Origin: an uncultured Anaerolineales bacterium
GTDB lineage: Bacteria > Chloroflexota > Anaerolineae > B4-G1 > DUEL01
Assembly (NCBI GenBank): GCA_964580565.1
Contig: CAZOLN010000003.1
Location: 1 to 41,499, forward strand
Reading direction: 5' to 3'
Length of the DNA stretch: 41,499 nt
Within the stretch, counting starts at the first letter, position 1. Each line of letters begins with the position of its first letter. The translations under genes were made by a program, and so were the position numbers. Below, piece by piece: positions 2,942-37,138 of this stretch. The notes below the pieces were generated by a model, which ran no database searches, was not told the origin of the DNA, and worked only from the letters and a program-made list of their open reading frames with translations.

Positions 2942-3886
2942 TCACCTCCATAAGATCTGCCGTCCCCACCGGCCCCGGAAGTGGTCGACCACGCCTCGCC
3001 AAAGCGCGCGCCGCTGTGCTCGCTTCCCCCACCACTTCGGCCGCACCGTCCAGGCGATCGACCGACGCATATACTCCATCAGCAGCGTATGGATCCACGC
3101 CCGGTATCCTGCCCCGGTCGATTCCAAGAACAGCAACCGGTTGCGGCTCATATAGTAGTGCACCATCGGCGAAGCCTCCCGCCCGTCGGACGGGATCTTG
3201 TGCCAGATATGCGCGCCGGGCACGTGGAGGATGCGGAATCCCGCACGGCGGATGCGGACGCACCATTCAACCTCCTCATAGTAGAGAAAGAACCGCTCGT
3301 CCAGCAGGCCGACCCGCTCCACCGCCTCCCGCCGCACCAACATCGCGCACCCGCTGACGAAGTCCACCTCCCGCGGCGCGGTGCCGAACTGCCCCCGATC
3401 CGGCTCATCCAACCCCACCATCCGGGTCCGCCCTCGCCGCCAGTCGATGGCTCCACCGGCCGACCAGACCACGTCGGGCCGGTCGTAGTAGTAGATGGTC
3501 GGGCCAACCACCCCCACCCGGGGGTCGGCCTCCGCCGCCTCCACCAACCGACGGAGGAAGCCGGGGGCGACCTCCGTATCGTTGTTGAGGAGGAGCACGT
3601 AGTCGGCCCCGCGCTCCAGCGCGTACCGAAGCCCCACGTTGTTGCCACCCGCGTATCCCAGGTTCTCCCCGGTCTCCAGGAGGGCCACACGGGGGAACCG
3701 CTGCCGGAGCAGGCCCGGCGAGCCGTCGGTGGAGCCGTTATCCACCACCACAACCTCCAAGGACGGGTAATCCACCTCCGCCAACGAAGCCAGACAGGCG
3801 GTGGTGTCCTCCAGGCCGTTCCAGTTCAGCACGACGGCGGTGACACGGGGCCACTTTTCCACCCTAACCATCTCCTCAGGGCCCAT
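2942..3886 (-). CDS. Glycosyltransferase family 2 (rhamnosyltransferase-like)
   Basis: VTAVVLNWNGLEDTTACLASL..VVVVDNGSTDGS..GYAGGNNVGLRYA..LLLNNDTEV motifs. The start is either 3886 (11-nt overlap with the upstream stop) or 3871. Confidence 0.85.
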   Translation of the reverse strand: MGPEEMVRVEKWPRVTAVVLNWNGLEDTTACLASLAEVDYPSLEVVVVDNGSTDGSPGLLRQRFPRVALLETGENLGYAGGNNVGLRYALERGADYVLLLNNDTEVAPGFLRRLVEAAEADPRVGVVGPTIYYYDRPDVVWSAGGAIDWRRGRTRMVGLDEPDRGQFGTAPREVDFVSGCAMLVRREAVERVGLLDERFFLYYEEVEWCVRIRRAGFRILHVPGAHIWHKIPSDGREASPMVHYYMSRNRLLFLESTGAGYRAWIHTLLMEYMRRSIAWTVRPKWWGKRAQRRALWRGVVDHFRGRWGRQILWR

Positions 3887-6800
3887 TCCGCAGCACCAAC
3901 GGCAGGAACACCCGCCCTGCAGGCACCACGCGCAGCGTTACCCAGTCGCTGCGGGGAGGGTTCGAGCGGGTTGTGGCGACGATCGTCCACGTCCCGAACC
4001 ACTCCGCAGTGTAGACATTCCCATTCCACATCCCACCCGCTTCCTTGTCAATGGTGTACTTACACCAGGGAGTCCAGTCGCCGATGCTGTTGCCGTACAG
4101 GTCGAAGGCCTCCACCGTGGCCGTCACCACCTCCCCGCGACCGACCTCGTAACTGCTGAGGCGGAGTTCGATGTACCCCACCTTGGTTCCAGGCCGCACC
4201 TCGAACGGCTCGCACGCGGCGGAGATCGTCCCATCGGTGACAGTGAGGGTCTGCGTGCCCGCCGTCCCCATCATAAACGCTGTTCCCGTGAACGTGTGCT
4301 TTCCCCCGTCCGCCAGGGTGAACGTATAGGGAGAGTCAACCGTATAGGAGAGGGTGGCCTGCGGATCGGAGGTGAGGAAATAGACGCTGCCCTGGTAGTC
4401 GGTCTTGACGTTGTTGAACCGATCGTAGGCGGTCACCTGCGGCCCGAACGGAGAGAAATGATAGCCTGCGTAGACGACGGTGGGGCACCCCTTGATCCCG
4501 AAAGCGGCGAGCGGGCCGGGCCGGAGGGTCACCGTCACCCGATCCGAGACGCCCCCCGTCTCGGCCCGGACCACCGTCTCCCCCGCCGTCGTGTCGGCCA
4601 GGAGAGGCGCCGTGGCGACGCCGCCCGCGGTCAGCGCGACGTACGGAACGTACGGGAGGTGGGCCGAGCTCCCGCCGCCCACCACCGTGAACGTCACCGG
4701 AACCCGATCGGCGATCGGATCGCCCTGGCCGTCCCACAGCCGGGCCCGCAGGGTCGCGCTGGAAACCCCGTCGGCTACGATAGCGGGGGGATCGGCCTCC
4801 AGAGCCATCTGGGCTGGCGGTGGCGTCACACGGATAAGCCCCGTTGTGTCGGTCCCCAGGGTCGCATGGGTGATGATGACGTGGGCGGTGCCCGTGATGT
4901 GGCCGTGCAGCCGCGCCCAGGTCGCATCGGGGCCGGGGATCAGGTCGCTTGGCACGACGCCTCCGCTCACCGGGACCAAGGTCCAGGAGACCGGCTCCGT
5001 CTGGACGAAGTGGCCCACCTCGTCGCGGGCCACGGCGTACAGATCCGCATAGTAGCCCGAGGCCACCTCCAGCGTATCCACCTCGCCCCCCTCCCCGTCC
5101 GCCTGGCTTTCCACCGCCACGGAGGCGGGCGGTCCGACGCCGCAAACGAGGCCCGATCCCACGGGGTCGGCATCTCCGATGGCGACGCTGGCCCCGCTGA
5201 CGATCCCCTCTACCAAAGAGTCCGTGTCGGCGTCGAACCAGACCTGAAACTCGTTGGGCGTGGCGTACATCGCTCCGTTGGCTGCGCGGACCACCACGAA
5301 GAAGTACACCGTCTCACCGGGGTCCACCACCAGGCGGGCGTCGCCAGGATCGGGGGTGACGGTCCGGTATCCGTCGGCATCCAGCGTCAGGTCGGTCACG
5401 GTGACGACGGCCGTGTCGGCGATCGACCAGCGGCGGTTTCCGCCATCCCGATAGATCCACAGCGTGTCGACGACGTCGTTCGCCTGCGCGGAGGTCAACG
5501 GGGTCCCATCGGGGGCCGTAAACCGGAGACGCCACCAGATCGGGCGGACCCCCTCCTCGGTGGGCAGGCCGTTGTGGGTGAACGCGATGGCGAGCACGTC
5601 GTCCATCTGACCGTGCTGGATGGGCGGCGGGTCGGTCGGCATCGCCGCCTCCGCAACCCCACCGGAGACGTTGCGCCAGAGATCGACCTCGACCCCGTCC
5701 CAGTAATCGCTTCCCTCCACGACGTCGACATCGCCGTCCCGGTCGAAATCGGCCGCAGCCACGGTCCGCACGACCATCTGGCTGGGCGCGATGATGTGGT
5801 CGATCCAGTGGGTGTCGGTCAGGAAATCGCCGAAGGGCACGCCGGAGTTCTCGAACCACATCCGCCGCCAGCGGGTGATCCCGGGCATCACGTCGAGCCA
5901 GCCGTCCCTGTTGAAATCTTCCACGACCAGGGACTCCGCCGAGCCGCCCATCCACGGCGGCGAGGGGGGCGTCCCGTACCAGACCGCCGTGGGCTGCCAG
6001 GTCCAGTGAAACGTGGCCGGCTGTTCATCGAAAGGAGTGCCGTCGTTCTCCCAGACCTTCACCTGGTAGTCCGCCTCGACGTGGTCGGCGGAGACGATGT
6101 CCAGGTCGCCATCCCGATCTAAGTCGGCCAGGACCACGTCGTGGACCGCCGCGCCCCAGTAGCCGTGGTAGTGGCTGGGGTTCTCCTCCGGCCCCAGCGT
6201 CACCGTCGCCGGATCCCGCCCTACGATCGTGACGGTCCAAGCGCCGGCAAAGGGGTCGGTGGGGCTACGCAGGGCAAGCAGTTCATACACGTTTGGCCAC
6301 TCCGACCGAAGGACCGGCGAGATCGGAGTACCCACGGCGGGGGCGTGGTCCGTCCCGGCGACCACGTCGGCCCATCCGTCGCCGTCCAGGTCGCCCACCG
6401 CCACGGCGTTGACGCTGTACGTGAGGACAGCGGCGTCGGTGAAGGACCAGGGGCCGTCAAACGGCGTGCCGTCGTTCCGCCAGAGGGTCACTTTGTGGGC
6501 AGGGCTCGGGTCGGCCAGGTGCTCTCCGGATCCGGTGACCAGGTCGGGCCACCCATCCCGGTCCAGATCGTACACGGCGATGTCACCCACCGGTGCGCCC
6601 GGATCGCCGACGGTGTAACCTGTCCACGGTCCATCCGGCTCGGTGCCCTGGTTCTCCCAGATCCGCAGGAACGGCGGGTCCGTGTGGCCGCTGACGATCT
6701 CCAGATCGCCGTCCTGATCCAGGTCGGCCAGGGCGAGGCTCAGGACCGGTCCCGCCTCTGCCACCAGGTGTGCCGTCCACCCGGCCTCCATAGGCTGCCC

Positions 6801-8297
6801 GTCGCTCGTCCAGACCCGGATCTCGCCGATGCTATCGCCGCTGACCAGGTCGGGCCATCCGTCCCGATCCACGTCGCCGGAGACGAGCGCCCGCACATCG
6901 GCCACGCGGGAACCCACGGGGACCGACGGCTCTGCGAAGAGAGCGCCGCCGTGGATCAAGGTGTTCGGCCACCACGCCACCTCAGGCGCAGCGCCCGCGG
7001 CGACCAAGTCCGGGTCGCCGTCCCCGTCCAGATCGCACGCCACTGCGCGCCAGAGGGGGGCTGCGCTTCCACCCAGCACCACCCCGTCCCAGGCCTGGTC
7101 CAGCCCGCCGACGTTGCGCCAGGCACGGGCGCCCGGGGAGGCGCCTCCGCCCACAGCAGCCAGATCGGGCAGCCCGTCCTCGTCGAAATCGGAGGCGGCC
7201 AACCCGTATGCCGGCCCGCCGAGGCTGCCCAACACCTGGTAGGCAGGCGCGGAGCCACCGAAGGGCTGACCAGGGGCGAAGGGGGTGGCCCAACCCAGGA
7301 TCCGGCCCGCCGCGTCGCCCGCCGCAACATCGGGGAGGCCGTCCCGATCGAAGTCAGCCACCGCGAGGGAGAGGAGATCGTCCCCCGCGCCGCCCCACGT
7401 CTGGGAGAGGGTCCACGACCCGGCGAAGGGCGCGCCGGGGTTCTGCCACAGGCGCAGGTCCCCCGCGGCCGTCGCCAGCACGTCGAGCAGGCCGTCCTGG
7501 TTCAGGTCGGCCACGGCCACGGCGTGGATCGGCCCCCCACCCGTGCTCAACGCGGTCGGCAACCCCCAGTCGGCGGTGAACGGATCGCCGGGGCCCATCG
7601 GGTTGCGCCAGAGGTACACCACCCCGTCGCTCCCGGCGACCACCAGGTCGGGCGCGCCATCCCGATCCAGATCGGCCACCGTCCCCGCCGGGAAGGTCAA
7701 CGCCGTCGAAGCGGTCACCACCCCACCGGTCCCCCAGGCCCCGCCGAAGGGGCTGCCGGGGTTGCGCCACAGGCGGACCTCCCCGTCGCAGAAAGCGACC
7801 AGGTCGGGAAAGGTGTCCCGGTCCAGGTCCGCCGCCGCCAGCCCGTTCACCGCTCCCCCGCAGAGGCCGATCTCCACCGACGTCGAGAACGCCGTTCCTG
7901 CAGCCACCCGCACCGCCGATCCGGCCGCAAAAGCCAGGTCCAGGTCGGCATCGAGGTCCAGATCGGCCACATCCAGCCCGGCCGCGTCCCCACTCGGCGC
8001 GAAGAGGGGCGTCCTCCCACCGAAGGAGAGGGGGTTCCCCTCCACGGGAGGGGAGGCCTGCACGGTCCAGGAGGTGTTCAACAGGGCCAGCAGCGCTACC
8101 GTCAGGAGCGCGGCCCCCGCCACGGGCAGGAGGTAGGCCAACGAATTTCGAACGAACAAACGAACGGCGGCCCACACCGTCCCGGTACGCTGGTCGAGAT
8201 AAACGGAGCCCTGCCCGCCCTCCCGCTGGCGCAGTCCACGGGCCGGCGACCCGGCCTTCTTCCATTCGTTAATTCGTTCCCTCATTCGTTGTTCCAT
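3876..8297 (-). CDS. Giant (about 1473 aa) N-terminally anchored surface protein: FG-GAP/VCBS repeats plus C-terminal bacterial Ig-like (Big) domains
   Basis: TM segment LAYLLPVAGAALLTVALLALL. Well over ten repeats of the D(L/F)D(G/R)DG.(P/L)D(L/V)...W.N type. The C-terminal third has invasin-like Ig repeats (LEADPPAIVADGVSSATLRARLWDGQGDPI). Start trimmed to ATG 8297 (AAGGAG SD), since the ORF-track start 8540 overlaps the SGNH gene. Confidence 0.8.
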   Translation of the reverse strand: MEQRMRERINEWKKAGSPARGLRQREGGQGSVYLDQRTGTVWAAVRLFVRNSLAYLLPVAGAALLTVALLALLNTSWTVQASPPVEGNPLSFGGRTPLFAPSGDAAGLDVADLDLDADLDLAFAAGSAVRVAAGTAFSTSVEIGLCGGAVNGLAAADLDRDTFPDLVAFCDGEVRLWRNPGSPFGGAWGTGGVVTASTALTFPAGTVADLDRDGAPDLVVAGSDGVVYLWRNPMGPGDPFTADWGLPTALSTGGGPIHAVAVADLNQDGLLDVLATAAGDLRLWQNPGAPFAGSWTLSQTWGGAGDDLLSLAVADFDRDGLPDVAAGDAAGRILGWATPFAPGQPFGGSAPAYQVLGSLGGPAYGLAASDFDEDGLPDLAAVGGGASPGARAWRNVGGLDQAWDGVVLGGSAAPLWRAVACDLDGDGDPDLVAAGAAPEVAWWPNTLIHGGALFAEPSVPVGSRVADVRALVSGDVDRDGWPDLVSGDSIGEIRVWTSDGQPMEAGWTAHLVAEAGPVLSLALADLDQDGDLEIVSGHTDPPFLRIWENQGTEPDGPWTGYTVGDPGAPVGDIAVYDLDRDGWPDLVTGSGEHLADPSPAHKVTLWRNDGTPFDGPWSFTDAAVLTYSVNAVAVGDLDGDGWADVVAGTDHAPAVGTPISPVLRSEWPNVYELLALRSPTDPFAGAWTVTIVGRDPATVTLGPEENPSHYHGYWGAAVHDVVLADLDRDGDLDIVSADHVEADYQVKVWENDGTPFDEQPATFHWTWQPTAVWYGTPPSPPWMGGSAESLVVEDFNRDGWLDVMPGITRWRRMWFENSGVPFGDFLTDTHWIDHIIAPSQMVVRTVAAADFDRDGDVDVVEGSDYWDGVEVDLWRNVSGGVAEAAMPTDPPPIQHGQMDDVLAIAFTHNGLPTEEGVRPIWWRLRFTAPDGTPLTSAQANDVVDTLWIYRDGGNRRWSIADTAVVTVTDLTLDADGYRTVTPDPGDARLVVDPGETVYFFVVVRAANGAMYATPNEFQVWFDADTDSLVEGIVSGASVAIGDADPVGSGLVCGVGPPASVAVESQADGEGGEVDTLEVASGYYADLYAVARDEVGHFVQTEPVSWTLVPVSGGVVPSDLIPGPDATWARLHGHITGTAHVIITHATLGTDTTGLIRVTPPPAQMALEADPPAIVADGVSSATLRARLWDGQGDPIADRVPVTFTVVGGGSSAHLPYVPYVALTAGGVATAPLLADTTAGETVVRAETGGVSDRVTVTLRPGPLAAFGIKGCPTVVYAGYHFSPFGPQVTAYDRFNNVKTDYQGSVYFLTSDPQATLSYTVDSPYTFTLADGGKHTFTGTAFMMGTAGTQTLTVTDGTISAACEPFEVRPGTKVGYIELRLSSYEVGRGEVVTATVEAFDLYGNSIGDWTPWCKYTIDKEAGGMWNGNVYTAEWFGTWTIVATTRSNPPRSDWVTLRVVPAGRVFLPLVLRNGP

Positions 8298-10172: not shown

Positions 10173-10190
10173 AAGAGAGTACCTCCCTAT

Positions 10191-10246
10191 GCGTCACACG
10201 TCATACGTCAGGCGTCATGCGTCATACGTCACGCGTCAGGCGTCAG
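10191..10246 (-). repeat. Heptamer tandem array x8, TGACGYR on the gene strand
   Basis: Plus strand reads gcgtcac acgtcat acgtcag gcgtcat gcgtcat acgtcac gcgtcag gcgtcag. Confidence 0.9.
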
Positions 10247-11428: not shown

Positions 11429-12526
11429 TCACCCTCCCGCCACGTTCTGCCAATGGGGCGCCAGGCTTCTGTCCGGATGGCGCGGAGTGAGCCTGCGCCG
11501 CAAGCCGACCAGCAGCCGCAGGGGGATCCCCTGCCAGCGGGTGGACGCCAGAGCCAGGCGATACTTCCGCCGGGGCGACAACGCCAGGGCCTGGGCCAGC
11601 CACCGTCGCCCCCGCTCCAGGTCCCGATGCCGGGCCACCGTCTCCACGCCCAGCCGGTACAACAACATCGCCCGATCCTCTGGCGGCAACCCCTGGAACC
11701 GGTCCGACGCCACCACCGCCGCCTGGGTCTCCGGGTCGCCATCGAAGAAGATGAGCAGCAACTGGCGGAGGAACTCGCGCCGGGTCCAGAGCGGCAGCGA
11801 GGGAAAGAAATCGGCCTCCAGGACCTTCCGCTTGAACCGCTGCACCGACCGCCAGCGGCGTGCCCAGTGAGGATGGGAGCGGGAGGAGGCGTTCTCCCCG
11901 TGGAGTCGGTACGCACAGACCGGCTCGCTGTGGGCAGCGAAGCGAGCCCCCGCCGCCGCCAACCGCAACCAGAGGTCGGCGTCCTCCGTGCCCCGCAGCC
12001 GTTCGTCGAACCAGGGATCGCCGAGCAGGCCCAGCGCCCGCCGTCGCACCATCGCCGAGTGGGTCGCCACGACCACGTTGTGCAGGACCATCACCGCCAG
12101 CAGCCCTTCCTCCGGAATCGAGGGGCGCTCCTCCGCGATCCGCTGCAGCCGCCGCCCCTCCGCGTCGCAGTAATACCCGTCGCCGTAGACCACATCCACC
12201 TCCGGGTGGCGGTCCAAGAAACCGGCCTGCACCTCCAGCGCCTCGGGGAGAAGCCAGTCGTCCGAGTCCAGGAAGACCAGGTACTCCCCCCGCGAGAGCC
12301 GGACCCCCCGGTTGCGGGCCACCGCCCGGCCCTGGTTCTCCTGGTAAAAGTAGCGGATCCGGTCTCCGTACCGCGCCCGCAACACGTCGCCGGTCCCGTC
12401 GGTGGATCCGTCGTCCACCACCACGATCTCGAAGGAGGGATACGCCTGCGCCAGCACGCTGTCGATGGCCTCACAGACCATCGAGGCCCGGTTGTAGGTG
12501 GGGATGATGACGCTAACCTTAGGCAC
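11429..12526 (-). CDS. Glycosyltransferase family 2 with about 130-aa C-terminal extension
   Basis: PKVSVIIPTYNRASMVCEAIDSVLAQ..VVVDDGSTDGT..LDSDDW motifs. GTG start at 12526 is preceded by GAAGGAG. Confidence 0.85.
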   Translation of the reverse strand: MPKVSVIIPTYNRASMVCEAIDSVLAQAYPSFEIVVVDDGSTDGTGDVLRARYGDRIRYFYQENQGRAVARNRGVRLSRGEYLVFLDSDDWLLPEALEVQAGFLDRHPEVDVVYGDGYYCDAEGRRLQRIAEERPSIPEEGLLAVMVLHNVVVATHSAMVRRRALGLLGDPWFDERLRGTEDADLWLRLAAAGARFAAHSEPVCAYRLHGENASSRSHPHWARRWRSVQRFKRKVLEADFFPSLPLWTRREFLRQLLLIFFDGDPETQAAVVASDRFQGLPPEDRAMLLYRLGVETVARHRDLERGRRWLAQALALSPRRKYRLALASTRWQGIPLRLLVGLRRRLTPRHPDRSLAPHWQNVAGG

Positions 12527-13760
12527 CGACTCGCTCCTTCAGATGGGAATGAAGAACCGACCACATCTCCTCGGCACGGCGCGTCCAGGTGTTCTCCTGG
12601 GCGTAGCGCAGCCGCCGCTCCCGCAGGTCCGGCGGCTCCTGCAGAGCCTCCTCCAACGCGGCGAGGAACCCCTCCGGCCCCTCCCCCACGTGGACCACGT
12701 CGGCGAACCGCTCGACCCCCGCCACCGGCGTGCTGACGATGGGCCTCCCCGTCGCCAGGTAGTCGTACAACTTGATGGGGTCCATGCTTCGAGTGAGGGA
12801 GGTGACGGCGTGGGGAAGGATGCAGACGTCGAAACCCCGGAAATAGGCGGGCAGATCGTGAAAATCTCGCCGCCCCAAAAAGCGAACGTTGGACCGCTGG
12901 GCCAGCGCCGCCACCTGATGGCGGTGGTTGTCCCACACGTTGCCCACAAAGACGAAGGACCAGGTGGGACGGGCATCAGCGAGCGCTTCCAGCAGCCCGT
13001 AGTCGATCTTGTCGGCGATCTGGCCGACGTAGCCGACGACGGGACGGGGGAGGTCCACCAGTTCCGGCGCGACGGGGCCGGGCTCGGCCGCCCTCCCCAC
13101 CACCGTCAGGTCGGTCGCGTTGGGGGCCCGACGGGCGTTACCGTTCACCCGTCGGGCGCGGCGATGGAGGGTCTCCGAGACGGCGAAGACCACATCCGCC
13201 TCCCGGAGCAACCGGTCGTTGAGCCGGACCAACTCCTCCCGGTCCGCCACCGGCAGCACCTCGAAGGCGGCCCAGTCGTCGGTCCAGTCGTAGCAGCAGA
13301 GGACCCGCTCCGGAAATGTGTCCAGCGCCCAGGCCTGGAGGGGGTGGGAGAGCCAGAGGATCACCGGCCCCGGCCCCAGCCGCCGCAGCGCGGCGCGGAT
13401 CCGGCCGACGTAGAGGGCACGGTTGACCCGCTGGAGCGCCTTCCACCGCCGGACCCCCTCCAGGCGGGTGAGGGGCAGGCTTTTCTCGGAGCCGGTAAGG
13501 GTCCACACCCTGCCGTCGACGCGGAGGGGGCGGCCCAGAAGGGCGTCCAGGTGGGCGCGGCGGGTGGGCGGCAGGTGGCCCGGACCGAAGCGACCCCGCG
13601 CCAGGTCCAGGATGCTGGTCGCCACCGGGGGCTCGACGTACAGGACGCCCGCGACCTCGGGCCGCTGTGCGAACTCCCAGGCCAGGCGGGTTTTCCGACG
13701 GCCCAGGTTCCCCCACTCATATCCCGAGAAATACAGAAGGCGATACCGCTTAGGGGACAT
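12519..13760 (-). CDS. GT-B fold glycosyltransferase (GT4/TuaH-like)
   Basis: VVGYVGQIADKIDYGLL..VRFLGRRDFHDLPAYFRGFDVCILPH..IKLYDYLATGRPIVSTPVAG. Start trimmed to ATG 13760 (MSPKRYRLLYFSG), an 11-nt overlap with the upstream stop. Confidence 0.7.
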   Translation of the reverse strand: MSPKRYRLLYFSGYEWGNLGRRKTRLAWEFAQRPEVAGVLYVEPPVATSILDLARGRFGPGHLPPTRRAHLDALLGRPLRVDGRVWTLTGSEKSLPLTRLEGVRRWKALQRVNRALYVGRIRAALRRLGPGPVILWLSHPLQAWALDTFPERVLCCYDWTDDWAAFEVLPVADREELVRLNDRLLREADVVFAVSETLHRRARRVNGNARRAPNATDLTVVGRAAEPGPVAPELVDLPRPVVGYVGQIADKIDYGLLEALADARPTWSFVFVGNVWDNHRHQVAALAQRSNVRFLGRRDFHDLPAYFRGFDVCILPHAVTSLTRSMDPIKLYDYLATGRPIVSTPVAGVERFADVVHVGEGPEGFLAALEEALQEPPDLRERRLRYAQENTWTRRAEEMWSVLHSHLKERVGA

Positions 13761-20176: not shown

Positions 20177-21417
20177 GCAGCCTCTGCTCCCTCGCTCCTT
20201 TGCTCCCTTGCTCCCTGCACCCTCCATCGATGCGGCAGGTACACCAACGCTCCCCCCTGATCGAACCGGGAGCCCACCACGAAGTGGACCGCTCCGTCGA
20301 TCTGGTCATAGGTGAGCGGAGAAAAATGGTCCCGCTTGATGCCGACGTTGACGTTGTACTCCCCGTTGAGGAGGTTCAGGCTCTCGTAGATGACCTCGGC
20401 GACCCCCTCATCCCCCGGCTCGAAGTGGCCGTGGATGTCGAACCGGGCCGTCGTGGTACCGTGGAGGATGCGGTATCCCTGACGGATGCGGGAGTAGAAG
20501 ACGGGGTCGTCCACCGGCGCGTTGGCGCGGAAGTGGATGCGCAGCCTCATCGGCTCCGCCGTCAGGAAGGAGTTGCGCGGCTCCCCCTCCCCGTCGAGCA
20601 GTTCCACCCGCGTGATCTCCATCTCCCGACCGCCCCCTCCTCGCCTATCCACCTCCCGCCGCAGCGCCTCGCCAGCGAAGCCGGTGTGGTAGAGATCCAA
20701 CGCCTCCTGGGTCTCCCCCAGGAACATCACCTTGCCCTTGTAGAGGAACAGGGTCCGATCGCACAACTTCTGGATCATCTCCTTGTTGTGAGAGACCACC
20801 ACCATCGTCTTGCCGGCATCCCGGAACTCCTGGATCCGCCGGACGCACTTATCGCGGAACATGTAATCCCCAACGGCCAGCACCTCGTCGATGAGCAGCA
20901 CGTCCGGATCCACGTGGACCGCCACGGCGAAGCCCAGTCGGACGAACATCCCGGAGGAGTACCGCTTGACCGGCATGTCGATGAACTCCTCCAGTTCGGA
21001 GAAGGCGACGATGCTGTCGAACTTCTCGTCGATCTCCCGCCGCTTCAGCCCCAGGATGGCGCCGTTGAGGTAGATGTTCTCCCGCCCGCTCAGGTCGGGA
21101 TGGAAGCCCGCGCCCAACTCGATGAGGGCGGAGACCCTGCCGCGCACCGTGATCCGCCCGCTGGTGGGGCGGGTGACCCGGGAGAGGAGTTTCAGGACGG
21201 TCGTCTTCCCCGCCCCGTTGGGGCCGATGATGCCCAGCACCTCCCCCTTCTTGACCTCAAAACTCACCCCGTCCAGCGCCCAGAGCAGGTCCCCCCGATC
21301 CTTCCCATCCCGCCCGACCACCTTGCCCAGCAGGTTCGGCAGCGCGTCCCGCAGGCTCCCCCGTCCGAACCGACGGCGGTAGGCCTTTCGCACGTTCTCA
21401 AACTCGATCGCGGCCAT
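20173..21417 (-). CDS. wzt: Polysaccharide-export ABC transporter ATP-binding protein with C-terminal Wzt_C-type carbohydrate-binding domain
   Basis: Walker A GPNGAGKTT, signature YSSGMFVRL, Walker B LLIDEVLAVGD. About 150-aa beta-rich C-terminal domain (ITRVELLDGEGEPRNSF...LNGEYNVNVGI). Start trimmed to ATG 21417 (MAAIEFENV). Confidence 0.9.
   Translation of the reverse strand: MAAIEFENVRKAYRRRFGRGSLRDALPNLLGKVVGRDGKDRGDLLWALDGVSFEVKKGEVLGIIGPNGAGKTTVLKLLSRVTRPTSGRITVRGRVSALIELGAGFHPDLSGRENIYLNGAILGLKRREIDEKFDSIVAFSELEEFIDMPVKRYSSGMFVRLGFAVAVHVDPDVLLIDEVLAVGDYMFRDKCVRRIQEFRDAGKTMVVVSHNKEMIQKLCDRTLFLYKGKVMFLGETQEALDLYHTGFAGEALRREVDRRGGGGREMEITRVELLDGEGEPRNSFLTAEPMRLRIHFRANAPVDDPVFYSRIRQGYRILHGTTTARFDIHGHFEPGDEGVAEVIYESLNLLNGEYNVNVGIKRDHFSPLTYDQIDGAVHFVVGSRFDQGGALVYLPHRWRVQGAREQRSEGAEAA
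20186..20225 (-). repeat. Octamer tandem array x5, RAGGGAGC on the gene strand
   Basis: Plus strand reads gctccctc gctccttt gctccctt gctccctg caccctcc. Lies directly upstream of ATG 20176. Confidence 0.8.
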
Positions 21418-25871: not shown

Positions 25872-26807
25872 TCAAAGCCCCTCCAAAGTACCCTGGATCT
25901 GCGCGCGGATCGTCTTCCTCTGCTCAAGGATCTGCCGGAGGGCGTCGCGCGTCTCATCCCACGCCGTCGCCAATTGAACGACCCGATCCAGGAGAGACTC
26001 GGCAGGATCGAGGACATGGACAAGGAGGGGTTGAACCAGGGTGGCCCCCAGGCCGGTGGAGGCGCGCGAACTGAACCACCCATCCATCGGCTCCAGGATC
26101 CGTCGGTGAAGCCCTTCGACCAGGTCCGGGAGCATCGTCACGACCTCGCCGAGCCGTTCCAACCCATCCTGTACCTGACCGGCGGCGGGACCGGGCAGGT
26201 GGTCCAGGATCCAACGCAGGAAACTCCCCATCGTCTCCGCCAGAGGACCGGTGATCTCCAGCAGGCCGTTAACGCTGTTCTCCAGCGCCAGCATCCGCTG
26301 GGAGAGGGCAGCGAGGGTCTGTTGGAGCCACTGGAAGGCGGATTGGAGGGAAGGGAAACGGGACTGGAAGTCCAGCAACGCGGTTCGGCCGACCTCCAGG
26401 CCGGAGCGGAGGGCCTCCGCCCCCTCCCGCAGCCCGCCGATCAGGCCATCCAGTGTCTCCAGCGCCTGCTCCAGCCGTCCATCCAGCCCGGCCTCCTCCA
26501 TCGCTTCGTACAGGGCGACGACCTCGCGCTGCCGGTTCACCTCGGCCGAGAGGTGGCCGTAGCCCATCTGCCAGACGGCCAGCCCGCCCGTCACGGCCAC
26601 GACGGTTCCCCCGGCCACCGCCGCCTTGAGGAACCGCCGCCGGGAGGTCCTCCCCGGCACCGCCACCGATCCCGAGACCGCCTGTCGGGTCAGCCGGTCC
26701 AGTTCTTCCAACGTCCCGTCGTCCAGCCGCTCCAGCCGGTCGATGATCCGAGCCATCCGCGCAGCGCGGCGGATCCTGGTCGTCCGCACATCCCCCGTTG
26801 AGGTCAT
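25872..26807 (-). CDS. Hypothetical helical protein with internal Tat-like motif and one TM/signal segment
   Basis: SRRRFLKAAVAGGTVVAVTGGLAVW at about residues 55-80. The remainder is Leu/Glu/Ala-rich and predicted helical. I recognise no family. SD GGTGGAGGGAAG. Confidence 0.55.
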   Translation of the reverse strand: MTSTGDVRTTRIRRAARMARIIDRLERLDDGTLEELDRLTRQAVSGSVAVPGRTSRRRFLKAAVAGGTVVAVTGGLAVWQMGYGHLSAEVNRQREVVALYEAMEEAGLDGRLEQALETLDGLIGGLREGAEALRSGLEVGRTALLDFQSRFPSLQSAFQWLQQTLAALSQRMLALENSVNGLLEITGPLAETMGSFLRWILDHLPGPAAGQVQDGLERLGEVVTMLPDLVEGLHRRILEPMDGWFSSRASTGLGATLVQPLLVHVLDPAESLLDRVVQLATAWDETRDALRQILEQRKTIRAQIQGTLEGL

Positions 26808-27870: not shown

Positions 27871-27947
27871 GTGTCATGCGTCAAACGTCATGCGTCATAC
27901 GTCACACGTCAAGCGTCAGACGTCAAACGTCAGGCGTCAGGCGTCAA
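27871..27947 (-). repeat. Heptamer tandem array x11, same TGACGYR family
   Basis: Plus strand reads gtgtcat gcgtcaa acgtcat gcgtcat acgtcac acgtcaa gcgtcag acgtcaa acgtcag gcgtcag gcgtcaa. Confidence 0.9.
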
Positions 27948-29036
27948 AGCGAGGCGGGTGACGAGCGGCAGGTACAGCGCAGCACCCCCGGCGAGGGGGA
28001 TCCGCTCCACAAGGGTGTACGGTCCGCCCGCCCCGTCGTCCCGATAGGTCTCCAGCACAACGAAGTCGTCCTCAACCCGGATAACGAGAAAGGTGCTGGG
28101 GGCTCCTCGATCCCCCTTTCCACGGGCGTGCCCGGCGTCCAGTTGCCAGACCCCGTCGATGCGCACCGCGCTGTAGTTGTGCGTGTGCCCGCAGATGTAG
28201 GCCACCACGCCGTGGGCCGCCAGGAGGTCCCAAAACCGATCTCGGTTCGCCGGATGAGCGTCGAGGCTGTCGCCGACGTGTCGCTCCCGCCCCGTCTCCG
28301 CGTCCGGCTGCGGGAAGGCCGGCTCGTGGCCGAAGACGAAGATGTAGGGCCGGTCGGTCGCCTGCAGGTCCGCCGCCAACCACTCGTAGAGGTGGTCGGG
28401 AAGGTCCCCATCGGTCGCCATCGGCCCGCCGACGTCGCAGTAGACGTTGAGCATCACCAGGTGGGCAGCGCCGTAGTCGAACGAGTAGGTCGTCGTCGGG
28501 CAGCCGGAGGGGCCGGGGTTCACCGGGCCGTAGTCGTACGCCTGGAGCCAGGCCACGTCGTCGGGGGTCTCCACCTCGTGGTTGCCGACGCCGGGATACC
28601 ACGGGAAGTCGGCCCCAAGGGTCTGGGAGAGGGTCCACTGCACCCCCAGCGGCGGATCGACGTCGCCGGGGCTGACCATGAAGGCCACGTCGCCCAGGGC
28701 GGCGATGGCCTCGCACGCCCCGCGGAAGTAGTGGACGGAGTCGTAGAGGCCCGGCCCTGCGTACTGCCGCATATCGGCAGCGACGGCGAAGGCGAAGGAG
28801 GAAGAGGGGGAGAGAGGGGAGAGAGGAGACAAGGGGACAGGGGGAGAAGGAGGAACCGTGGGAGAGGATACGGCAGGAGGACGAGCTGTAGGGGCGAGGG
28901 TGGGAGAGGCGGTGGGAGAGGTGATAGGGGGAGCAGCAGGAACGGCAGCGCAGGCAACCCCGAGCAAGAGGAGCGACAGCAAGATCGACGACGGGGTCAG
29001 GCCGAGCACCCTCCCCAACCGGTGGAGTCCCTTCAC
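27930..29036 (-). CDS. Secreted or anchored calcineurin-like metallophosphoesterase
   Basis: Signal/anchor ILLSLLLLGVACAAV and a Pro/Ser-rich linker, then SPGDVD, GVGNHE, VFGHEP, ICGHTHN motifs. GTG 29036 follows GGAGGAGG. The stop lies inside the heptamer array. Confidence 0.8.
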   Translation of the reverse strand: MKGLHRLGRVLGLTPSSILLSLLLLGVACAAVPAAPPITSPTASPTLAPTARPPAVSSPTVPPSPPVPLSPLSPLSPSSSFAFAVAADMRQYAGPGLYDSVHYFRGACEAIAALGDVAFMVSPGDVDPPLGVQWTLSQTLGADFPWYPGVGNHEVETPDDVAWLQAYDYGPVNPGPSGCPTTTYSFDYGAAHLVMLNVYCDVGGPMATDGDLPDHLYEWLAADLQATDRPYIFVFGHEPAFPQPDAETGRERHVGDSLDAHPANRDRFWDLLAAHGVVAYICGHTHNYSAVRIDGVWQLDAGHARGKGDRGAPSTFLVIRVEDDFVVLETYRDDGAGGPYTLVERIPLAGGAALYLPLVTRLALTPDA

Positions 29037-37081: not shown

Positions 37082-37109
37082 ACGCACCTCCTACGAGAAG
37101 TGGCTACCC

Positions 37110-37138
37110 ATTATACTGCGAGATACGATGGGGTGCAA
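37110..37138 (-). promoter_or_regulatory. Sigma70-type promoter for the FmdB-family gene
   Basis: Minus strand reads TTGCAC, 17 nt, TATAAT. A plus-strand TATACT at 37112-37117 overlaps it and could serve gmk. Confidence 0.55.

Follow-up and report, generated by a model that had tools for sequence, protein, structure and literature searches.

The window analysed here is a 41,499-nucleotide stretch of contig CAZOLN010000003.1 (GenBank assembly GCA_964580565.1) from an uncultured Anaerolineales bacterium, and on its minus strand lie two genes for large exported proteins, an FG-GAP/VCBS surface protein with Big_1 Ig-like domains (P0001, 3876-8297) and a calcineurin-like metallophosphoesterase (P0002, 27930-29099), which end in nearly the same short peptide. 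The open reading frame (ORF) of P0001 (3876-8540, minus strand) closes with VVPAGRVFLPLVLRNGP directly before the stop, or LRVVPAGRVFLPLVLRNGP in its equivalent form; positions 3879-3917 code for the C-terminal peptide GRVFLPLVLRNGP and 3876-3878 for the stop codon. The ORF of P0002 (27930-29099, minus strand) closes with GGAALYLPLVTRLALTPDA (equivalently IPLAGGAALYLPLVTRLALTPDA) and a stop, and 27933-27977 codes for its C-terminal peptide LYLPLVTRLALTPDA. The shared element is FLPLVLR in P0001 (3888-3908), directly preceded by Arg-Val (3909-3914), and YLPLVTR in P0002 (27954-27974), and it stands three residues (NGP) and seven residues (LALTPDA) from the respective ends. A sequence-only reading of this DNA had reported the two tails, and translation reproduces both peptides and their coordinates exactly. 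A six-frame scan of the window for [FY]LPL[VIL].[RK] finds only these two sites, both at true gene ends and none in any other real ORF of the 41.5 kb, as that reading had also stated, while residue-shuffled translations yield a mean of 0.03 matches (maximum 1). A looser pattern also picks up WLPIILR at 37104-37121 (plus strand), which we discarded as a chance match: it lies in a non-coding frame in the gap after a zinc-ribbon gene, 11 codons past the previous stop, and runs 8 codons to the next one.

Both tails are copies of the YLP-box, a motif that NCBIfam has already catalogued in two models, NF053834 (ultrashort_CTERM, 10 positions) and NF050076 (sort_motif_YLP, 11 positions), each named "YLP-box putative sorting motif-containing protein". 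P0002 exceeds the NF053834 cut-off of 10 bits as a full protein (12.2 bits), and its tail alone exceeds both cut-offs (16.8 bits for NF053834; 16.3 bits for NF050076, cut-off 15). The P0001 tail, with F in place of Y, reaches 13.0 bits against the NF050076 cut-off of 15 and does not match NF053834; this shortfall is weak evidence against membership, because canonical YLPLVLRNH and YLPLVLRNR tails score only 11.1-13.2 bits in the context of whole proteins of 96-108 residues. The NF050076 cut-off is marginal for a model of 11 positions, and the F-variant escapes the curated model. P0001 and P0002 are therefore added members of a known group, P0001 as a sub-threshold F-variant, and the notion that the motif is undescribed does not hold. 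Like the NCBIfam members, they are exported Chloroflexota proteins with this motif at the extreme C terminus, although the extension of seven residues in P0002 is unusually long. The YLP-box can be written as (basic)-x-[YF]-L-P-[LV]-V-x-[RK] followed by 0-7 arbitrary residues, and it marks Sec-exported surface or secreted proteins of Chloroflexota. What is new here is that some homologues carry the box N-terminally, that others have a dockerin-like module in its place, and that the residues after the conserved Arg are incidental. The NCBIfam models provide names only, and we found no mechanism, partner or publication attached to them: a literature search returned no paper on the YLP-box, on YLPLV-type sorting strings or on a Chloroflexota C-terminal sorting motif, and the myxosortase preprint (10.1101/2023.06.07.544157) makes no mention of the YLP-box.

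P0001 contains at least 10 FG-GAP/VCBS repeats plus Big_1-type Ig domains (Pfam FG-GAP_3, 1.8e-59; FG-GAP, 9e-28; Big_1/Invasin_D3, weak). Its translation likely starts at Met82 (position 8297) of the 1554-codon ORF, which would give a protein of 1473 residues, like the homologue P0123. The predicted export signal (8055-8297, minus strand) consists of an extended, basic n-region and the hydrophobic segment SLAYLLPVAGAALLTVALLALL, with cleavage predicted after VQA; the homologues have short classical signal peptides ending in VQA, ILA or VRA, with the same A-x-A, ahead of a conserved SPPVEGNPL. All 15 of the closest homologues (P0123-P0137; best local alignment 40-89% identity) have [FY]LP[LS]V at the same place, with F and Y alternating at the first position of the box and Y in most of them. 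More distant Chloroflexota FG-GAP/Big_1 proteins end in FLPVVLRNH, FLPLLLRN, HMPLVLRGAGH or YLPMVWKAY, while a Myxococcus match has no such tail. The codons for NGP and the stop (3876-3887, minus strand) overlap the start of the gene directly downstream, a GT2 glycosyltransferase gene at 2942-3886 identified from the ORF list and Pfam: the gene-strand sequence AATGGGCCCTGA holds the ATG of that gene (3884-3886) in another frame. The overlap between the P0001 stop region and this ATG amounts to 11 nucleotides (ATGGGCCCTGA, window 3876-3886) and suggests translational coupling within the glycan operon to which both genes belong.

P0002 is assigned from its translation, a Pfam Metallophos match (2.5e-10) and 1212 homologues, the closest of which are labelled Thermoflexia. 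An alternative GTG start at 29036 agrees with the homologue P0003. The hydrophobic segment of its signal peptide (28950-28991, minus strand) closes with a lipobox-like LLGVAC, after which comes a Pro/Ser/Thr-rich linker of about 50 residues, and P0002 is, by this pattern, probably a lipoprotein; the corresponding residues in close homologues are LLAGC, LTAC or LVAC, and a lipobox-type pattern occurs in 26 of 121 scanned proteins (P0002 and 120 homologues), most of the close ones included. The two N-terminal export signals that had been ascribed to P0001 and P0002 are found again by heuristic criteria, as a hydrophobic segment with VQA in the first and a lipobox-type signal in the second. In an AlphaFold2 model of P0002 built from 83 sequences (mean predicted local distance difference test score, pLDDT, 83), a helix at residues 36-48 is followed by a linker modelled with low confidence as far as residue 100, the catalytic domain (101-370) has an average pLDDT of about 95 (10-residue block means 78-98), and residues 371-389 average 45-58, with no secondary structure past 371. 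The box accordingly lies at the extreme C terminus, outside the catalytic and repeat domains as first proposed, and in P0002 within a tail that the model leaves unstructured. Among the same 121 proteins, 96 have a [FYWH]-h-P-h-h core in their last 22 residues.

The end of P0002 also coincides with a DNA repeat. Its post-box segment LALTPDA plus the stop (27930-27953, minus strand) runs into a satellite of TGACGNN heptamers, the last five codons and the TGA being the first units: on the gene strand the sequence reads CTCGCT TTGACGCC TGACGCC TGA and continues as TGACGNN units, so that the last codons and stop are TTG ACG CCT GAC GCC TGA. The satellite occupies 27871-27948 (27873-27948, period 7, by Tandem Repeats Finder) and fills the gap to era. 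In a Thermoflexia relative (locus L121) the P0002 tail is identical, with about five further heptamer units past the stop, compared with about nine here. A second heptamer satellite, at 10189-10245, lies directly upstream of a hexapeptide-transferase gene, as the first does of era, the units being written TGACGNN / GCGTCAN.

This overlap, and the shortness of the motif, could be taken to mean that the two tails agree by chance, through common gene ancestry, or because gene ends carry some DNA or RNA element, for instance a terminator or a repeat. We regard this explanation as effectively refuted and give it hardly any weight, on the grounds of stop proximity, homologue tails, codon differences and shuffles. 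Two sites are observed where 0.03 are expected, P0001 and P0002 belong to unrelated Pfam families, the satellite begins only past the box, and the motif recurs on dozens of unrelated families. The two 21-nucleotide boxes are identical at 13 of 21 bases and differ in their synonymous codons, so the resemblance reflects selection on the encoded peptide and not a DNA repeat.

To follow the motif beyond the window, 185,579 GTDB species genomes (one per species) were scanned for TACCTGCCGCTGGTGNNNCG, a GC-rich spelling of Y-L-P-L-V-x-R, which gave at least 120 loci; those labelled Chloroflexota are from Anaerolineae, Thermoflexia, Chloroflexia, Caldilineaceae, Ardenticatenaceae and Promineifilaceae. 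Among the matches listed, the distances to the next in-frame stop are bimodally distributed, and a stop lies within 10 codons downstream in 39 of 49 Chloroflexota matches versus 6 of 72 elsewhere (Fisher p = 3.7e-16). In the 39 tails, the number of residues after the basic residue is 0 in eight, 1 in three, 2 in ten, 3 in fourteen, 4 in one, 5 in two and 7 in one. By a hydropathy heuristic, a strongly hydrophobic stretch is present within the first 90 residues of 17 of 21 complete C-terminal carriers (at least 100 residues), as compared with 9 of 56 controls, which are internal, non-Chloroflexota pattern matches. The association also appears in ORFs that had not been selected by the pattern, taken from the same loci, the window and two orthologue loci: YLP-type tails occur in 9 of 51 signal-like ORFs versus 3 of 179 without a signal (p = 9e-5), and one of the latter three is P0001 itself, misjudged because its longest ORF starts too far upstream. 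Excluding the window and orthologue loci leaves 6 of 48 versus 2 of 178 (p = 0.0014). Enrichment among signal-peptide proteins, which the sequence-only reading had put forward as the check on its proposal, is thereby borne out on 50 related Chloroflexota loci. Several neighbouring genes in related loci, likewise not selected by the pattern, carry a YLP-box, and the tails occur on dozens of unrelated protein families in many contexts. Conserved at the level of the peptide, the YLP-box is a signal that exported proteins of many families bear at a free and unstructured end, and within this sample it is restricted to Chloroflexota.

Three groups of matches in the scan are recorded here in their own right. 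Three of the six non-Chloroflexota near-stop matches listed belong to one actinobacterial family (L024, L072, L103; Streptomyces, Spirillospora) of about 200-300 residues that ends in VDEVYLPLVRR(R/S)G, a look-alike of the YLP-box, and has no hydrophobic N terminus. A metagenome-assembled genome labelled Holophagae (L070, 430-449) has a 65-codon frame ending in GGGKIYLPLVLRQ and a stop, a canonical YLP tail that may be due to mis-binning of the contig or to a gene fragment, or may be genuine and lie beyond Chloroflexota. A recurrent secreted protein of 96-108 residues with no Pfam family (L068, 7319-7645; L069, L086, L009) accounts for 4 of the 49 Chloroflexota matches listed, and consists of a signal peptide, Gly-rich repeats (GGGY.L.W.TVDGGG / GG.Y.L.GT.GQ.DAG / GG.Y.L.GGFW) and a canonical YLPLVLRN tail; no copy of this family is found in the window, in L121 or in L122.

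The position of the box is not fixed. In the phosphoesterases P0098, P0096 and P0116 it is N-terminal, after the signal peptide and immediately ahead of the catalytic domain (for example TGTAYLPAIVRRDSLPFTFAVAADMR), and loci L058 and L074 encode proteins in the order signal peptide, YLP-box, Pro/Thr linker, domain; the N-terminal box of L058 exceeds both NCBIfam cut-offs, and the L074 piece matched neither model. Internal copies are found at domain boundaries in L061, L094 and L110. Furthermore, in four Chloroflexota phosphoesterases (P0084, P0105, P0070, P0096) a two-repeat, Asp-rich D-x-D-x-D-G-x-I-D tail replaces the C-terminal YLP-box, and P0096 combines this tail with an N-terminal box. 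The two of these that were scanned, P0084 and P0105, reach 19.4-20.9 bits with Dockerin_1 (PF00404), for which the gathering score is 22.9, and so stay under the threshold. P0001 and P0002 themselves have no Pfam dockerin match (PF00404; two calcium-binding repeats of about 22 residues).

The two genes sit in different surroundings. P0001 lies inside a one-strand polysaccharide operon, with the same placement in a Joint Genome Institute (JGI) relative (L122), and the operon encodes Wzy_C, a GT2, an AlgX-like SGNH protein, a hexapeptide acyltransferase, another GT2, GT1/GT4, a GHMP kinase, an asparagine synthase, a type I phosphodiesterase, Wzt/Wzm and a Wzc-like protein. P0002 lies outside it, between a vitamin-uptake-type transporter gene and era, and L121 is arranged alike. 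Because P0002 is outside the operon both here and in L121, the motif is not specific to the glycan cluster; what is conserved inside the operon is the FG-GAP protein alone and not its tag. The link to the adjacent glycan machinery suggested at the outset is not supported for the motif itself, P0002 being located beside era and the boxes occurring on many unrelated families. At the junctions of the glycan operon there are purine-rich octamer arrays on the gene strand, at 291-367 and 20181-20224 (CAGGGAAG, about 10 times; AGGGAGCA, about 4 times), which resemble amplified Shine-Dalgarno sequences. Beside era, 25872-26807 (minus strand) encodes a 311-residue protein with no Pfam match and a twin-arginine-type signal (TSRRRFLKAAVAGG), apparently rich in Leu, Glu and Arg after the signal and possibly helical, and L121 has a 311-residue gene, also with no Pfam match, at the same position beside era (12198-13133). 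As to the source, the closest homologues carry the labels Thermoflexia, Anaerolineales or Chloroflexi and the window is syntenic with GCA_011192125.1, a Thermoflexia bacterium; judged by these matches, the window is from a Thermoflexia/Anaerolineae-type member of Chloroflexota.

A short C-terminal signature shared by many unrelated signal-peptide proteins of a genome is also the hallmark of LPXTG/sortase, PEP-CTERM/exosortase, GlyGly-CTERM/rhombosortase and MYXO-CTERM/myxosortase, and the L-P-x-[TV] core recalls LPXTG in particular. The YLP-box could, by analogy, be a cleaved sorting signal, at or before which a dedicated extracytoplasmic protease or transpeptidase, resembling a sortase in function but not in its requirements, cuts in order to transfer the protein to the wall, sheath or glycan. 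Its strongly C-terminal location on exported proteins and the NCBI name "putative sorting motif" fit this explanation, the internal boundary copies could be processing sites, and P0001 lies within a glycan operon both here and in L122. However, all characterised C-terminal sorting signals are tripartite, comprising a motif, a transmembrane helix and a basic cluster (10.1101/2023.06.07.544157), and neither P0001 nor P0002 has the motif, transmembrane helix and basic tail of LPXTG proteins or a PEP-CTERM-, GlyGly-CTERM- or MYXO-CTERM-type NCBIfam match at E <= 1. That no hydrophobic helix with a basic tail follows the motif had been recognised from the start, only NGP and LALTPDA being present. 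There is therefore no helix or Arg cluster to retain the substrate at the membrane, and 0-7 residues follow the box; eight of the 39 tails end exactly at Arg, so that cutting after the box is impossible there, and cleavage at the N-terminal copies would free the whole protein instead of attaching it. Furthermore, the genes of the window include no sortase, exosortase, rhombosortase, CPBP protease or other peptidase, and all-against-all ORF clustering of 48 Chloroflexota loci revealed no recurrent candidate partner, the only recurring groups being other YLP-box families and a common ABC ATPase. On balance, we consider cleavage rather unlikely.

The same tolerance of either terminus, the variable position and the lack of a partner gene in the 48 loci would be compatible with a box that needs no receptor. 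With its composition of a basic residue, I/V-Y-L-P-L-V-L/M and Arg, about seven hydrophobic residues flanked by basic ones might insert directly into the outer leaflet or into a hydrophobic sheath or wall. This self-anchoring seems improbable, more so than cleavage, since Y, L and P hardly vary even between distant classes, a constancy beyond what a generic hydrophobic patch needs, since a stretch of seven residues with proline at its centre is too short to anchor stably in a membrane, and since P0002 already has a lipobox.

Instead, we favour, with reasonable but not full confidence, the interpretation that the YLP-box serves after export as a portable tag at the protein terminus, recognised as a linear peptide, for tethering or sorting. 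An exported protein would expose the unstructured box at its terminus, and a candidate envelope component would recognise it as a short linear peptide, thereby holding otherwise soluble exoproteins, such as the adhesin-like FG-GAP giant and the lipoprotein phosphoesterase, at the surface of the cell or filament, presumably with no requirement for a membrane-spanning segment. In such a tag, residues past the conserved Arg or Lys would carry no information; taken together, the satellite-coded tail of P0002, the ATG overlapping the end of P0001 and the eight tails ending exactly at Arg show that the informative part stops at the basic residue. In agreement with the tag interpretation, the tail is retained in homologues of both proteins as their other parts diverge (15 of 15 for P0001; 96 of 121 for P0002). 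The role in sorting or attachment first suggested for the motif remains the most reasonable reading, and the tail is a real, non-random tag common to unrelated exported proteins. Docking is preferred over sortase-like cleavage because the helix and basic cluster are absent, tails end at Arg, the box occurs at either terminus and a dockerin-like module can replace it.

A more specific version, which we put forward only tentatively and think doubtful as it stands, is that the box is a minimal, position-independent analogue of dockerin, of about eight residues, which docks Sec-exported enzymes and adhesins onto a receptor of the envelope or sheath and is not a cleaved signal. Like dockerin-cohesin, SLH and LysM modules, it is portable and can be attached to either terminus of varied exoenzymes, in many cases through a Pro/Thr linker; unlike dockerin, it spans about 8 residues and not a calcium-binding fold of 60-70, and no cohesin-like receptor is known. 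Eukaryotic CAAX boxes and PDZ-ligand tails are likewise C-terminal signals of a few residues with no helix, but the YLP-box has no Cys, lies at a variable distance from the carboxyl end, can be N-terminal and acts outside the cytoplasm.

Several points weigh against the tethering interpretation. The clustering of 48 loci offers no recurrent partner, and the literature we searched yielded no receptor, enzyme or experiment for the YLP-box. The genome scan is a sample, made with one GC-rich codon spelling and at least 120 loci, and the signal-peptide calls come from the hydropathy heuristic and not from SignalP. The cases of relocation and replacement are few, five N-terminal boxes and four dockerin swaps, and the P0001 tail stays below the curated thresholds. 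Finally, P0002 is probably already lipid-anchored, and a second tether is not obviously needed. The window, with two carriers within 41.5 kb, thus supplies clean examples of dispensable residues after the Arg, of the F-variant and of tag relocation or dockerin-like replacement, which together favour docking over C-terminal transpeptidation, and it contains no decisive mechanistic handle.

Wastewater sludge, hot springs and sediments all harbour abundant Chloroflexota, and we know of no mechanism by which exoproteins are retained on their unusual envelope. The YLP-box is probably the main label of the Chloroflexota surface proteome, and as such it has value for annotation ahead of any mechanism. 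If the docking-peptide reading is true, the box would represent a new, helix-free and Chloroflexota-specific system of surface display.

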